Positions 44,764 through 62,105 of a stretch of 64,000 nt of DNA are shown piece by piece (positions within the stretch are counted from its first letter, which is position 1; each line of letters opens with the position of its first letter). Made by a program: the position numbers and the translations under genes. The notes beneath the pieces are model-generated. The model was not told the DNA's origin and searched no databases. It saw only the letters and a program-made list of their open reading frames with translations. The stretch lies in assembly GCF_051903065.1 (NCBI RefSeq), contig NZ_CP178438.1, one strand, 5' to 3'. The stretch is from Escherichia coli. Its GTDB lineage: Bacteria; Pseudomonadota; Gammaproteobacteria; Enterobacterales; Enterobacteriaceae.

Positions 44764-45672
44764 ATGGCGAACTGGGCGCAAAAATTAAAACTACATCACC
44801 TTGAAATGCTGGTGGCGCTGGGTGAACAGGGCAATCTAACCCATGTCGCACGAATGATGAATATCACCCAACCTGCGCTTTCGAAATGGTTGTCACAACT
44901 CGAAGATGAGATTGGAATCACACTTTTTGAGCGGCACAGCAAAGGATTACGTCCGACTGAAGGCGGCAAATTGTTATTGCAACATGCCCAACGGTTAATC
45001 AATGACATGGAGCGATCGCAACATGAACTGGCCCGTTTTAAACAAGGTGGACTGGTCGGCAGTCTGAAAATTGGCTGTTCTCCCGTCGCCACTGACTGCG
45101 TATCCCAGGCGATTTTGCATTTGCTTACGAAGATGCCAACTCTACACCTGAATATCGAAGAGAAGGTGATGACCCCATTGCTGCAAGATCTATTGGCAGG
45201 TTCTGTCGATGTGGTCGTTGGGCGAATTGGCGGTCGCGCATTGCAGCTGCCACTGAATTATCAGGTGCTGTACACCGAGCCAGTATGCTTTGTCGCCCGC
45301 CCTGAGCACCCACTGGCGAAATACGCCACCCTCAGCTGGAATGATCTTGCCAACTGGCGCTGGATCGTCTGGCCGACGGGTACCCCCATTCGCATTAGTA
45401 TTGATAATGCGCTGGTAGACCACGGCGTAATGCTGCCAGAAAACACGATTGAGTCGGCGTCGATGAACGTCAGTACCAACCTGTTACAAAGCAGCGATAT
45501 GATCTCTATTTTGTCATTACGCCTGGCGCAACGTTATGCCAGCCAGGGACAACTGGTGATACTCAACCTGCCAAAGATAGAACAGAAAGGTAGCGTCGGT
45601 GTGTTCTGGCGCAATAACGAAACGCCTTCTTATGCTTTAAGTCAGTTTCTGCACTTTTTACAGCAGAATTAG
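44764..45672 (+). CDS. mhbR: LysR-family transcriptional regulator, divergent from the catabolic operon
   Basis: N-terminal HTH LEMLVALGEQGNLTHVARMMNITQPALSKWL; GGAGG Shine-Dalgarno 9 nt before the ATG. Confidence 0.7.
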   Translation: MANWAQKLKLHHLEMLVALGEQGNLTHVARMMNITQPALSKWLSQLEDEIGITLFERHSKGLRPTEGGKLLLQHAQRLINDMERSQHELARFKQGGLVGSLKIGCSPVATDCVSQAILHLLTKMPTLHLNIEEKVMTPLLQDLLAGSVDVVVGRIGGRALQLPLNYQVLYTEPVCFVARPEHPLAKYATLSWNDLANWRWIVWPTGTPIRISIDNALVDHGVMLPENTIESASMNVSTNLLQSSDMISILSLRLAQRYASQGQLVILNLPKIEQKGSVGVFWRNNETPSYALSQFLHFLQQN

Positions 45673-45766
45673 TGTGCTGAACGGGGCGCTCGCCCGAGGT
45701 TACCTCCCTAAAATTCAACTATGCTGAGAATTCTTAATGTGATCGGTAGCACGTTTTACGAATTAA

Positions 45767-46897: not shown

Positions 46898-46913
46898 TGC
46901 GATGCGTCGCGCA
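46898..46913 (+). promoter_or_regulatory. CRP binding site (distal, cdd CRP-2 position)
   Basis: TGCGA-N6-GCGCA half-site pattern about 50 bp upstream of the proximal site. Confidence 0.5.
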
Positions 46914-46947
46914 TTTTTGATGTAAGTTTCACGCGTTGCATAATTAA

Positions 46948-46963
46948 TGAGATTCAGATCACA
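46948..46963 (+). promoter_or_regulatory. CRP binding site (proximal, about -41 of the cdd promoter)
   Basis: TGAGATTCAGATCACA, close match to TGTGA-N6-TCACA; a TAAACT -10-like hexamer lies about 20 bp downstream. Confidence 0.6.
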
Positions 46964-47022
46964 TATAAAGCCATAACGGGTTCGTAAACTGTTATCCCAT
47001 TACATGATTATGAGGCAACGCC

Positions 47023-49018
<1,996 letters not shown>

Positions 49019-49211
49019 TATTTTCTCTTTTCTGTTAATTATTGAGAATAATTATTACTTCACTCAATAAGCTGCGGATATAACATTCTGAACCGCAGCT
49101 ATTTGTGAATCCTTTCACAGTTTAAATTTCCCCACGCGCATAGCCTTAATATCAGCACGCAATATTTATTTAGCGTTCGCCTTAATTACTCATAGCATTA
49201 AGGAAGATCAC

Positions 49212-50450
49212 ATGCCGCAACAAAATTATCTGGATGAACTCACTCCGGCTTTTACGCCGTTACTGGCGATTAAAGAAGCCTCTCGCTGTTTATTATGTCA
49301 CGACGCTCCCTGTAGTCAGGCTTGCCCGGCACAGACCGATCCGGGGAAATTTATTCGCTCAATCTACTTTCGTAATTTTAAAGGCGCTGCCGAGACAATT
49401 CGCGAAAATAATGCCCTCGGTGCCGTTTGTGCCAGAGTGTGCCCGACGGAGAAATTATGCCAAAGCGGTTGTACCCGTGCCGGTGTTGATGCTCCCATTG
49501 ATATCGGCCGCTTACAGCGTTTTGTTACTGATTTTGAACAACAAACCGGGATGGAAATTTATCAGCCCGGTACTAAAACGCTCGGCAAAGTCGCGATTAT
49601 TGGCGCAGGTCCTGCCGGATTGCAGGCCAGTGTGACACTGACAAACCAGGGTTATGACGTCACGATTTATGAGAAAGAAGCGCACCCCGGTGGCTGGTTG
49701 CGTAACGGTATTCCGCAATTCCGGTTACCGCAATCAGTGCTGGATGCAGAGATCGCCCGTATTGAAAAAATGGGCGTGACCATTAAGTGCAATAACGAAA
49801 TCGGTAAAACACTCACCCTGGAGCAACTGAAAGCGGAAAACCGCGCGGTACTGGTCACCGTGGGGTTATCAAGCGGTTCCGGGCTACCGCTGTTTGAGCA
49901 TAGCGACGTTGAGATTGCCGTCGACTTCCTGCAACGTGCACGACAGGCGCAAGGCGATATCAGCATTCCACAAAGCGCATTAATTATCGGCGGCGGTGAT
50001 GTCGCGATGGACGTAGCCAGCACGCTGAAAGTTCTCGGCTGTCAGGCGGTAACTTGCGTAGCGCGTGAAGAGTTAGATGAGTTTCCGGCAAGCGAAAAAG
50101 AGTTTGCCAGCGCCCGGGAGCTGGGCGTTTCGATCATCGATGGATTCACGCCAGTAGCCGTGGAAGGCAATAAAGTCACGTTTAAGCATGTACGGTTATC
50201 GGGCGAACTGACGATGGCGGCAGATAAAATTATTCTCGCCGTCGGTCAGCATGCCAGACTGGATGTCTTTGCGGAGTTAGAGCCGCAGCGTAACACCATC
50301 AAAACACAAAATTATCAGACCCGCGATCCGCAAGTCTTTGCTGCTGGCGATATTGTAGAGGGTGACAAAACCGTGGTCTATGCCGTGAAAACCGGGAAAG
50401 AAGCCGCCGAGGCGATTCATCACTATTTAGAGGGAGCTTGCTCATGTTAA
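49212..50450 (+). CDS. preT: NAD-dependent dihydropyrimidine dehydrogenase subunit PreT
   Basis: Dinucleotide-binding motif [11 protein letters not shown]; overlaps the preA start. Confidence 0.85.
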
Positions 50451-54528: not shown

Positions 54529-55527
54529 TTATTTCTTGCTGAATTCAGCCAGGTTGTCTTTATCTACGCCAACATAAGGTACGCGGACCACTTTGTTGTC
54601 GATTTTCCAGTTGGTGCCATCAGCCGCACCTTTGCCATCGGCCAGGTTTTTCGCCAGATCAAAGGTCGCTTTCGCCTGGTTGTTAGCATCGTTCAGTACG
54701 GTGCCCGCCAGTGCACCGGATTTCACCAGCGCCAGCGCTTCTGGCAGCGCATCAACGCCAAACACCGGAATGCTGGACTTGTTGTGTGCTTTCAGCGCTT
54801 CAACCGCGCCCATTGCCATCGCATCGTTGTTGGCGATAACCACTTCGATTTTGTTGGCGTTCGGGCCAGACAGCCAGGCGTCCATCTTATCTTTCGCCTG
54901 AGCGGTATCCCACATAGCGGTATCTAACTGTAACTGTTCAGTTTTAATGCCTTTGTCGTTCAGCTCTTTAATCACGTAAGTGGTACGTGCTTCTGCATCC
55001 GGATGGCCCGGTTCACCTTTCAGCAGTACGAATTGAATCTGACCGTCTTTATTCAGATCCCAACCCTGATTCGCCGCCCAGTGTTTAGCAATCAAATCGC
55101 CCTGAATAATGCCGGACTCTTTGGAGTCAGTGCCAACGTAGTAGGCTTTGTCGTAGCTATCCAGCGCCTTACGAGACGGTTCTTTGTTGAAGAAAACCAC
55201 CGGCACGTTTTGCCCACGCGCTTTCTCAATCACCGTACCCGCAGCTGCCGGGTCAACCAGGTTGATTGCCAGTGCCTTCACCCCTTTCGCCAGCAATACG
55301 TCAATCTGATCGTTCTGCTTGGACTGGTCATTCTGAGAATCATTCATCAGCAGCTGAACATCTGGCGCGGCTTTCGCATCTTGCTCAATAGCCTTGCGCA
55401 CTACAGACATAAAGTTATCGTCGTACTTATAGATTGTTACACCAATGCGAGTATCAGCAGCGTGTGCAGCGGCACCGAATAACATGCTGGCCATCACAGC
55501 AGACAGGGTTAACACCTTCTTATTCAT
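54529..55527 (-). CDS. mglB: Periplasmic D-galactose/D-glucose-binding protein
   Basis: Signal peptide [23 protein letters not shown]; 332 aa. Confidence 0.9.
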
Positions 55528-55778
55528 GGTATCTCCGGTTTTTCTTATGCAGGGTAGTGCTTGAGATAAATGCTCGGCGGGGCAGTAAAGTTAATGAAGT
55601 GTTACTGAACGCCGAAGCTCACTTTTTAAAATTCGTTCTTCCATGCCCGGTAACGCTCCAGAAAACGGCTTTAATTGTTGTTATGACGCTATTACCTCGG
55701 TGAAAGTGATTATTCACTGTTACATACGGGTTACAACGTTAAAACGGTGCAATCATAGCTATCACATTGTTAAGATAC

Positions 55779-55794
55779 TGTGAAATCACTCACA
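55779..55794 (-). promoter_or_regulatory. CRP binding site upstream of mglB
   Basis: TGTGAAATCACTCACA matches TGTGA-N6-TCACA exactly; minus-strand -10-like TATGAT at plus 55753-55758 fits a class II arrangement. Confidence 0.6.
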
Positions 55795-55806
55795 GATTGA
55801 AAGCGG

Positions 55807-56847
55807 TTACATCGCCTGATTTGTTGAGTTAGTGATCGCCGCCGCATTCTGGCGCGTTGCGACAGAATGGCGACGCACTAACGTCGGCATAAAACAGTGG
55901 CTGGCACGAGGATCAATATTGCCTGCTGCACCCTGCAAGGCCAGTTCGGTGGCTAATTTAGCCATTGAAGCAATGGGATAACGCACGGTCGTTAATTGCG
56001 GGTCGGTGTAACGGGCGATGGGAATATCATCGAAACCGATGATTGAGAGATGTAACGGAATCGCAATGCCATTATCTTTTAATGCTGTCAGTGCGCCAGC
56101 GGCCATATTGTCGTTATAAGCAAATACAGCGGTAAGTTGTAGATTGCGCCCCAGCAGTTCAACCATCGCCGCCTCACCGCCCGGCATGTCCGGCGTGCCA
56201 GTGCCAATCCAGCTTTCCGGCGGAATAATATCCTGCTCTTTCAACGCACTCATCCAGCCTGCTTTACGCATGGCGTCATCTTCAATGCCGTGACTGGAAG
56301 AAAGATAACCAATACGTTGATGACCGTTATTCAGCAACATGCGCGTTGCCATTCGGGCACCGCTGAGATTATCCAGGCAAACGCAACGATGGGCGTACCC
56401 CGGTACAACGCGGTTGATTAACACCATACCGGGAATGTTATCCATAAATTGTGCCAGTTCATCGTCACTCAATGCTTTTGAGTGAACAATCAACGCATTA
56501 CAACGCTGGTGAATTAACACCTCAATGGCGTGACGCTCTTTTTCCGCTTCATGATAGCTATTGCCGATTAGCACGTATTTCTGATGCTGCTGAGCGACCA
56601 GATCCACCGCTTTTACCAGCGCGCCGAAAAACGCATCAGAAACGTCCATCACCACCACGCCAATGGTGTCGCTAACCTGAGTTGCCAGCGCCTGGGCATT
56701 GGCGTTTGGCCGATAATCCAGCTCACTCACGGCTTTCATTACTGCTTCACGCGTGTCGGCACTGACCAGCGTGCTGTTATTGAGCACCCGGGAAACCGTT
56801 GCCACAGAGACGCCAGCCTGACGCGCTACATCACGAATGGTGATCAT
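55807..56847 (-). CDS. galS: LacI-family repressor GalS (346 aa)
   Basis: N-terminal [27 protein letters not shown]. Confidence 0.85.
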
Positions 56848-56923
56848 ATTCACTACCTGTTATGAGATTGCAGTAAATGACTGCTTGCTGCCGGCTATTT
56901 TGTCAGCACTGAATACAGGACTT

Positions 56924-56939
56924 CGTGAATCGAGTCACA
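56924..56939 (-). promoter_or_regulatory. CRP binding site in the galS promoter
   Basis: CGTGAATCGAGTCACA, one mismatch to TGTGA-N6-TCACA. Confidence 0.5.
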
Positions 56940-56942
56940 GCA

Positions 56943-56958
56943 ATGGAAACGGTTACAG
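56943..56958 (-). promoter_or_regulatory. GalR/GalS operator-like site
   Basis: ATGGAAACGGTTACAG resembles the gal operator pattern (GTGNAANCGNTTNCAC); centred about 60 bp upstream of the TSS inferred from the CRP site. Confidence 0.45.
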
Positions 56959-56988
56959 CCGTTTTGTTAACGAATGTGATCCAGATCG

Positions 56989-58146
56989 TTATCTTGATGT
57001 TTTAGATATTGCCGGTCCGGCAGCACGCAAAGTTAACTGACGCCAGAGCCATTCCACCGGCCCCTGGCGGAAGTAACGCAGCCAGATAACAGAGAAGAGG
57101 ATATTCGCCAGCCATACCGGAATAACAAACGCCAGCAATTCCAGACGGTCAAACTGCATAAACAAACCGAGGTGATAAAAAAGCGTGGTACAAATCAGCG
57201 TTTGCAATAGATAGTTGGTCAGCGCCATCCGTCCGACGCAGGCGATCGCAACCACCAGCTTAAAGCGGCTCAATTGCGGCCAGAAGCCATAAAACAGCGA
57301 CGCATAGCCAATCGCCTGAAACGGCGCACTCAGTTCCCGCGGTATCTGAAGTAAGAAGGCACACCAGCGATATGTCCAGTCCAGCTGCCATTGCAGGGCG
57401 ATGGCAGGAAGGTTAATGGTCACCCCAATCGCCACCAGCACAAAACCAGTACGACGATAGTGACGTAAGCTGAACTGCCCTTTCAGCCAGCCGCTGCGTA
57501 TCAGCGCCGCACCAATGAGCATCATCCCTGCCAGTTGCCAGCCATACTGTGCGCCCAGTGCCAGTAAACTGTTGCCAACACCATCGGCACGATTACTGAT
57601 CGCTTCAACGCCGCCGTGAAGCTTCCAGTATTTTTCATACAAAATAGCCGATGCATCCGGCGTCCAGGCGCGGCTGGTCTGGCTGTCGGAAATCAACCCC
57701 AATAACAGCAAAACGCCAAGCCCCACCAGATAAAGCATGACGCCGGTATTAAACAGGCTTTTTACCGATGGCGCATCGCGCACCAGCCGCCAGCAGATTA
57801 AGCCCACCAGCCCGTAAGCCAGCAGAATATCGCCGTCCCAGAACAGTAAACCGTGAATAAAGCCCAGCAAGACTAACAGCGTTAACCGCGACTGGATCCA
57901 GCGTCTGCCACGGGGCAGCAACATTTGCAGGCCAGCACCAAACAGCAGCGCAAAAAGCGTGAGGAATTTCACCTGGCCGATGAGATCGAGAAATGCCCAG
58001 GTCCATGCATCCTGCGGCGTAATAGCACCGTACCAGGCGGGATTGAGATAAGCCGCCTTTGGTAGCCCAAAGGCGCTGATGTTTAATAGCAGGATCCCCA
58101 GAATGGCGACGCCGCGAACAAAATCGAGCGTGACGTTGCGCTCCAT
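56989..58146 (-). CDS. yeiB: DUF418-family inner membrane protein
   Basis: Tracked ORF, polytopic; synteny. Confidence 0.8.
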   Translation of the reverse strand: MERNVTLDFVRGVAILGILLLNISAFGLPKAAYLNPAWYGAITPQDAWTWAFLDLIGQVKFLTLFALLFGAGLQMLLPRGRRWIQSRLTLLVLLGFIHGLLFWDGDILLAYGLVGLICWRLVRDAPSVKSLFNTGVMLYLVGLGVLLLLGLISDSQTSRAWTPDASAILYEKYWKLHGGVEAISNRADGVGNSLLALGAQYGWQLAGMMLIGAALIRSGWLKGQFSLRHYRRTGFVLVAIGVTINLPAIALQWQLDWTYRWCAFLLQIPRELSAPFQAIGYASLFYGFWPQLSRFKLVVAIACVGRMALTNYLLQTLICTTLFYHLGLFMQFDRLELLAFVIPVWLANILFSVIWLRYFRQGPVEWLWRQLTLRAAGPAISKTSR

Positions 58147-61936: not shown

Positions 61937-62105
61937 TCCATATCTCCATGAGGTAACTACGAAAATAAAATGGGTTATCGCTCACATCTTCTTCACGTCC
62001 CCTTGCGTACGGCAGCATCGCGGTGGACTTATTTGTATGCAGGTGATCATCCCAGAAAGCCGGACCAGCCTCTGATTTGTCAGCCTTTTTTGATTGCGGC
62101 GCAAC

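Follow-up and report, generated by a model that had tools for sequence, protein, structure and literature searches.

CRP sites, Gal operators and the 218-nt leader at the mglB and galS promoters of Escherichia coli

In promoter P1 of the galETK operon of Escherichia coli, CRP is centred at -41.5, an external operator (OE) at -60.5 and an internal operator (OI) at +53.5, and the textbook separation of the two gal operators is 114 bp. At cdd and deoP2 a LacI-family repressor, CytR, is flanked by two CRP dimers, one at about -41 and the other at about -91 to -93. The feed-forward targets galK, srlA and fucI are CRP-activated and are repressed, through a single-stranded seed, by the CRP-repressed small RNA (sRNA) Spot 42. 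The mglB and galS promoters, in a window of 64,000 nt of E. coli chromosome (contig NZ_CP178438.1, assembly GCF_051903065.1), were compared with these systems. The gene run is mglA-mglB-galS-yeiB-folE, with every gene on the minus strand; mglB occupies 54529-55527 (A of the ATG at 55527) and galS 55807-56847 (stop codon 55807-55809). In all probability the two promoters, mglBp and galSp, are CRP-activated, GalS/GalR-repressed sigma-70 promoters of the gal regulon, driving mglBAC and galS. Their architecture is already known: the CRP sites, Gal operators, starts, ArcA box, long leader and Spot 42 control have all been published.

Of 5426 complete E. coli genomes, 5425 matched a 1.7-kb query over the promoter region, in which mglB, galS and yeiB are annotated. 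Positions 55480-57060 were aligned to K-12 MG1655; all regulatory sites discussed here were identical, so that the K-12 literature carries over directly, and the differences, galS coding sequence aside, were a few leader bases. Window positions are converted to K-12 coordinates by adding 2,184,821 (U00096.3) or 2,182,843 (U00096.2). Conservation was assessed in 80 loci, nearly all of them from genera of Enterobacteriaceae, obtained by a GalS scan of a species-representative genome collection, and in a second set of more divergent galS-mglB loci from a metagenome scan (GalS identity 66-78%). Positions, match statistics, conservation, the leader's lack of structure and its seed complementarity were established here; starts, protein binding and regulation were taken from the literature.

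Upstream of mglB, CRP site I (TGTGAGTGATTTCACA, 55779-55794, minus strand; TGTGAAATCACTCACA on the plus strand) has an exact TGTGA-N6-TCACA core (10 of 10 positions), as the original prediction had claimed from the letters alone, and its half-sites are invariant in 79 species. Exact cores of this form number 2 in the 64 kb, against 0.08 expected. The core lies 252 bp (near edge) or 259.5 bp (centre) upstream of the ATG, in keeping with the distance of about 250 bp first proposed. Its centre, 55786.5, falls at -41.5, a class II position, from a transcription start at 55745 (minus strand; K-12 U00096.3 position 2,240,566); the start was derived from annotation and set at this base because the annotated CRP site (-41.5), operator (-59.5) and ArcA box (-42 to -22) all point to it. 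The mgl operator for GalS/GalR (ATGTAACCGCTTTCAA, 55797-55812, minus strand) is centred at 55804.5 (-59.5), 18 bp upstream of the CRP site, and overlaps the galS stop codon. Its 14-bp core, TGAAAGCGGTTACA (55798-55811), is an exact match to the operator pattern TGNAANCGNTTNCA, and the operator is invariant in 79 species. The -10 hexamer, TATGAT (55752-55757, minus strand; -12 to -7), was read from the sequence and is conserved in 79 species and in the divergent metagenome loci; loci with GalS identity of 66-78% retain the mglB promoter module.

Published data agree with these positions. GalR chromatin immunoprecipitation on microarrays (ChIP-chip) has a peak at mglB with the inferred site TTGAAAGCGGTTACA (Qian et al. 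2016), and an activator footprint was recovered at the mglBp CRP site, annotated at -41.5, in the Reg-Seq preprint supplement. Glucose-limited chemostat populations are repeatedly swept by a C>A mutation at 2,238,647, in the GalS site, with another C>A mutation, at 2,238,630 in the CRP site, following it. The first, an operator-constitutive mutation, converts to window position 55804, the central operator C, 3 bp from the end of galS, and the second to 55787; both are C on the plus strand. Kinnersley et al. (2009) also put an adaptive operator mutation 3 bp from the galS end. A further sequence, GTGCACCGGATTTCAC (54711-54726), lies inside the mglB coding sequence with 2 mismatches to the Gal operator core and is listed by Qian et al. 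(2016), from chromosome conformation capture (3C) and in silico work, as the GalR operator 'O (mglB)'. In most genera GalS ends in ...ITN followed by a stop (window 55807-55830); in E. coli this stop is replaced by the sense codon TCA, giving six extra residues, STNQAM, and the galS frame reaches into the mgl operator only in species with a C-terminal extension of this kind.

The mglB promoter also carries a box for phosphorylated ArcA (ArcA-P), TTGTTAAGATACTGTGAAATC (55767-55787, plus strand; -42 to -22), which overlaps the promoter-proximal half of CRP site I. TTAACA at -28 to -23 is invariant and, when taken with the CRP half-site and seen from the other strand, forms an ArcA direct repeat. 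Park et al. (2013) list in their supplement a strong ArcA ChIP peak at mglB and place its box, TTGTTAAGATACTGTGAAATC, at '-42 to -22'; mglBAC changed 29-fold when arcA was mutated. Readings of TTAACA as a misplaced -35, an antisense extended -10 or a Gal half-operator all failed on spacing.

At galS, CRP site I (TGTGACTCGATTCACG, 56924-56939, minus strand; CGTGAATCGAGTCACA on the plus strand) matches the core at 9 of 10 positions, with the one mismatch in TCACG, and is centred at 56931.5 (-42.5). TGTGA and TCACG are invariant in the 80 species and the spacer between them occurs in 26 forms; a free spacer between fixed half-sites is the classical CRP footprint. A CRP footprint was recovered at this site, annotated at -42.5, in the Reg-Seq preprint supplement. 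The external operator of galS (CTGTAACCGTTTCCAT, 56943-56958, minus strand; ATGGAAACGGTTACAG on the plus strand), an exact 14-mer match, had been described as immediately flanking the CRP site; the two do adjoin, but a 3-bp gap separates them. Its centre, 56950.5, is 19 bp beyond the CRP centre, which places it at -60.5 or -61.5 (-61.5 from the start at 56889) and bears out both the predicted distance of about 60 bp from the start and the likeness to the external gal operator, at -60.5. The operator is conserved in 80 Enterobacteriaceae species, with half-sites essentially invariant, and the site inferred from GalR ChIP-chip at galS is ATGGAAACGGTTACA (Qian et al. 2016).

The galS start, 56889 (minus strand; K-12 U00096.3 position 2,241,710), was likewise derived from annotation and gives a 42-nt leader, in agreement with the value of -42, relative to the gene, that Kinnersley et al. 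(2009) tabulate for the start of galS mRNA. An extended -10, TGACAAAAT (56897-56905, minus strand), read from the sequence, fits this start, and the pattern CTGnCAnAATAG is conserved in the 80 species. The internal operator (GTGGCAACGGTTTCCC, 56790-56805, minus strand; centre 56797.5, about +92) lies in the helix-turn-helix codons of galS, and its core (56791-56804) has 2 mismatches to the operator pattern. Qian et al. (2016) list OI(galS), with the ChIP-chip inferred site GTGGCAACGGTTTCC. An ArcA box considered upstream of galS (TTGTTAACGAATGTGA) was set aside: its repeat spacing is 10 bp rather than 11, and galS is absent from the supplement of Park et al. (2013).

RegulonDB annotation, as given in the Reg-Seq preprint supplement, has CRP at -41.5 and GalR/GalS at -59.5 for mglBp, with no downstream operator listed, and CRP at -42.5, GalR/GalS at -61.5 and a downstream operator at +91.5/+92.5 for galSp. 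With starts at 55745 and 56889, the centres 55786.5, 55804.5, 56931.5, 56950.5 and 56797.5 reproduce all five annotated positions. At both promoters a match to the CRP core is combined with a centre near -41.5 of the literature start, and the class II placement proposed for each agrees with the annotated -41.5 and -42.5; both promoters rise with cyclic AMP (cAMP) (Kaplan et al. 2008). The 16-bp Gal operator dyad, GTGNAANC.GNTTNCAC with central CG as given by Qian et al. (2016), was found at the operators, exact in the 14-bp core at the mgl operator and galS OE, and GalR ChIP-chip has peaks and inferred sites at all three (mgl, galS OE and galS OI). The comparison with published binding data thus came out in favour of the sites, with annotation, GalR ChIP-chip, adaptive mutations and Reg-Seq CRP footprints in agreement. 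Every element named in the original prediction was present, the three quoted sequences on the plus strand at their places, but the account was incomplete: it missed the mgl operator, the galS internal operator and the ArcA box of mglBp.

That these motifs are non-functional chance matches to a loose consensus has next to no probability. When 2 mismatches are allowed, the operator pattern does occur at chance level in the window (29 found, 37 expected), which is what such a reading would predict. Exact TGNAANCGNTTNCA, however, occurs twice in the window against 0.16 expected, both times 18-19 bp upstream of a CRP site (mglB and galS), and exact matches altogether exceed expectation 12- to 25-fold and occur at two promoters as pairs with a fixed spacing. 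The sites are invariant across 80 species while the CRP spacer varies freely, and ChIP, genetic and reporter data back them; the chance reading is already refuted.

At each promoter a cAMP-CRP dimer near -42 would thus activate RNA polymerase from a class II position, and the polymerase would rely on a good -10 (TATGAT at mglB, extended TGACAAAAT at galS) without a real -35. A GalS or GalR dimer bound 1.5-2 helical turns further upstream (-59.5/-61.5) would repress when galactose is absent. Additional control would be exerted from the internal operator at about +92 at galS, and through the CRP-overlapping ArcA-P box at mglBp. With galETK P1, mglBp and galSp share the regulators, the class II CRP site and an operator 1-2 turns upstream of it, and galS likewise has an internal operator. 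The galS operators are 153 bp apart, as against about 110 bp in gal (annotated -60.5 and about +46.5 to +52.5), and mglBp differs from P1 in having a single promoter-proximal operator, no second promoter of the P2 type and a 218-nt leader.

The mglB 5' leader (55528-55745, minus strand) follows from the CRP position: with CRP at -41.5 the start is 55745 and the leader 218 nt, close to the 220 nt or so first predicted. A long leader had already been noted, as a 5' untranslated region (UTR) of mglBAC of 'about 250 bp' (mBio 2011), and the same study found the Yersinia leader equally long yet unrelated. Its length is kept at 196-220 nt across Enterobacteriaceae (about 80 species), and galS and mglB start 1299-1321 bp apart in every species of the 80-locus set but one. 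In the exception, Citrobacter amalonaticus (L015), the mglB leader is enlarged by an insertion of 194 bp, the sole large length change among the 80 species. In divergent metagenome loci (L131, L114, L119 and others) the leader runs from about 35 nt to 265 nt; a long leader is therefore typical of Enterobacteriaceae and not universal.

The original prediction had offered additional downstream promoters as another explanation of this distance, and one could hold that mglB is expressed mainly from one or more further promoters inside the 218-bp region, the CRP-dependent start being real and the working leader short. A promoter-like match, TTGTAA-16-AATAAT (minus strand, 55736-55709; 9 of 12 positions), lies there, one point mutation around +30 of mglBp yields a consensus -10 and a new start in Reg-Seq, and the leader is as short as about 35 nt in one of the divergent metagenome loci. 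The region holds 2 such matches against 2.1 expected by chance, however, and the -35-like part is unconserved (conservation digits 5210079). The Reg-Seq start requires a mutation, and the native sequence is therefore not an active promoter; the Reg-Seq supplement has only mglBp and mglBp2, with identical genomic coordinates, and the K-12 RefSeq record has no feature between galS and mglB. Together with the constant leader length in about 80 species, this leaves downstream promoters without support, and we regard them as improbable.

Several sequence blocks of the leader are conserved: AUGUAAC(R)G (55700-55725), which equals the left half of Gal operators, CUGGAGCGUUACCG (55646-55664) and CAGUAAC (55600-55610), all on the minus strand, and CA(C/U)GGAAGA. 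Length and blocks together might speak for a cis-acting structured RNA, whether riboswitch, leader-peptide attenuator or thermosensor, as might a 17-codon open reading frame (ORF), MEERILKSELRRSVTLH (55590-55643, minus strand, ATG at 55643), segments GUAAC, GUUAC and GUAAC that allow alternative pairing, and a 5-bp hairpin at +29 to +42. The ORF was rejected as a leader peptide: its ATG is found only in Escherichia, with ACG or AAG in most genera, and the CA(C/U)GGAAGA block around it is kept as sequence and not as a coding frame. The GUAAC/GUUAC/GUAAC segments never vary, so their helices give no covariation signal, and of two hairpins for which pairs were counted neither was convincing; the one at +29 to +42 is paired in 85% of cells with a few two-sided changes, which is weak support. 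An Rfam scan of the leader (E <= 1) gave no match, its folding energy was ordinary against shuffles (z = -0.58), RNAalifold on 30 diverse leaders gave -1.06 kcal/mol with 3 pairs and no consensus structure, and no terminator-like hairpin was found on the minus strand within the leader. The leader thus belongs to no known cis-regulatory RNA family by Rfam match or by covarying conserved structure; the unrelated Yersinia leader also counts against a structured RNA, which is improbable.

We favour instead a genuine 218-nt leader on the mRNA that begins at 55745, which would serve as a platform for trans-acting post-transcriptional control and not as a riboswitch or attenuator. The scan of the leader proposed with the original prediction, for sRNA target sites or attenuators, was productive in its first part only: it gave a Spot 42 complement, the pairing of which is already published, and no attenuator or structured RNA. 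In a seed-restricted duplex search, UACCCUGC (55549-55556, minus strand), 22-29 nt upstream of the AUG, was complementary to Spot 42 nucleotides 1-8 (GUAGGGUA) with one G-U pair; the Spot 42 sequence used was verified against E. coli genomes. The strongest conserved block of the leader, ACCCTGCAT, lies at this place, 20-30 nt upstream of the AUG, and is nearly invariant in 80 species. In the divergent loci the block is ACCCU[G/A]C, both variants of which pair with Spot 42, and it is kept even where the leader is about 35 nt. Conserved complementarity to a single-stranded seed near the translation start, as in Spot 42 targets, is thus present at mglB. A full-length Spot 42/leader duplex was discarded as unrealistic (120 nt, no better than shuffles), and matches to seed regions II and III at CAUGGAAGA were unconvincing.

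In Salmonella, Spot 42 represses mglB by pairing with its 5' UTR downstream of an Hfq peak, as compensatory mutations showed (Holmqvist et al. 2016); over-expression of spf in E. coli lowers mglB, and the UhpU sRNA also represses mglB. We infer that the complement seen in this strain corresponds to the published Spot 42 site. Situated just ahead of the ribosome-binding site, the conserved block would then pair, with Hfq, with the 5' end of CRP-repressed Spot 42, and this pairing would close a CRP/Spot 42 feed-forward loop. Like galK, srlA and fucI, mglB, a sugar-uptake gene, is CRP-activated and is repressed by a CRP-repressed sRNA via a single-stranded seed, and its seed complement is conserved beside the ribosome-binding site; it differs from them in its unusually long leader and in being also a reported target of UhpU, and the direct validation is in Salmonella.

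Some observations weigh against this account of the promoters and leader. The GalR/GalS operators of mglBp and galSp were not recovered in the Reg-Seq reporter, though ChIP and genetics support both. Both starts come from annotation quoted in papers. The energy of the Spot 42 duplex is by itself not significant, 53 of 500 shuffles being as good, and the conserved leader blocks AUGUAAC at +22, CUGGAGCGUUACCG, CA(C/U)GGAAGA and CAGUAAC are not explained by it.

The only residue outside annotation is a pair of CRP-type dyads, one upstream of each promoter, both centred at -93.5. The candidate at galSp, AACGATCTGGATCACA (56975-56990, minus strand; centre 56982.5), overlaps the stop codon (56989-56991) of yeiB (56989-58146, minus strand). 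It matches 15 of 22 positions of the CRP 22-mer consensus, which ranks it in the top six of the roughly 64,000 positions in the window, and just two central bases vary in the 80 species; in divergent loci it takes the form AATGA-N6-TCACA in the same register, with a free spacer. The whole block from -105 to -73 of galS is near-invariant in 80 species, beyond the adjoining yeiB coding sequence. This block (56962-56994, minus strand) also holds two GATC sites and the yeiB stop codon. Compared by eye with the consensus sequences of DnaA, IHF, Fis, Cra, FlhDC and FNR, it fitted only a geometry of the CRP/FNR type.

The candidate at mglBp, TGCGG-CGGCGA-TCACT (55831-55846, minus strand; centre 55838.5), lies in galS codons 334-339. 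It reads TG[TC]GG-N6-TCACT in 79 species with a free spacer, and keeps a fixed distance from the operator in loci with GalS identity down to 66%. Its third-codon bases at 55846, 55843 and 55834 do not vary, a degree of conservation reached by 7.5% of all third positions in galS, and at codon 334 the amino acid changes while the third base is kept. Three invariant third positions in six codons have p of about 0.007 per window, with about one such cluster expected per gene, which is weak alone. The left half-sites of both dyads are weak (TGCGG at mglBp, AACGA at galSp); the pair is worth noting because the two share position, dyad form and deep conservation. No CRP-like dyad was present at -93.5 of galETK P1.

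Stationary phase, acetate and galactose are high-cAMP conditions. In these conditions the Reg-Seq preprint describes an unidentified activator at about -95 of galSp, with which the -93.5 dyad coincides. At E. coli mglBp, Reg-Seq gave no footprint at -93.5, where the left half-site is the weaker TGCGG. The Hill coefficient for cAMP is about 2 at galS and about 1 at galE (Kaplan et al. 2008); a value of about 2 is compatible with two CRP sites at galS and far from proof of them. Judged from sequence and conservation, it is possible, if a little short of probable, that the -93.5 dyads of mglBp and galSp are real CRP sites, with the GalS/GalR operator between two CRP dimers 51-52 bp apart. Should they bind CRP, the layout at both promoters would resemble that of the tandem-CRP, CytR-type promoters cdd and deoP2, with GalS/GalR in between. 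To our knowledge no cooperativity between GalS and CRP is known.

The window itself contains what is presumably a promoter of the CytR type. The ORF at 47023-47907 is taken to be cdd, its translation matching Cdd, and its promoter has two CRP-like dyads, at 46898-46913 and 46948-46963 (within 46945-46966), with a spacing of 50 bp; these are presumably the sites already known as CRP-2 and CRP-1 in the cdd promoter, which CytR regulates. The second perfect CRP core of the window, TGTGAATCCTTTCACA (49104-49119), has its centre about 100 bp before the ATG of a 412-residue ORF (49212-50450) that we take to be yeiT/preT, and the CRP 22-mer has other strong matches at 44782-44803, 44904-44925, 45735-45756 and 61968-61989. 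The metagenome scan had been aimed at mglB promoters without galS; in every untruncated locus galS was upstream of mglB.

A reading of the raw sequence made without tools had thus recovered real promoter architecture with its geometry correct. If the -93.5 dyads are CRP sites, the activator at about -95 of galSp reported by Reg-Seq would be CRP, and the arrangement might help to explain why GalS preferentially controls mglBp and galSp, unlike galETK. A classic model regulon would then have tandem-CRP promoters at both of its GalS-preferring genes' control regions, with the repressor lying between the activators.

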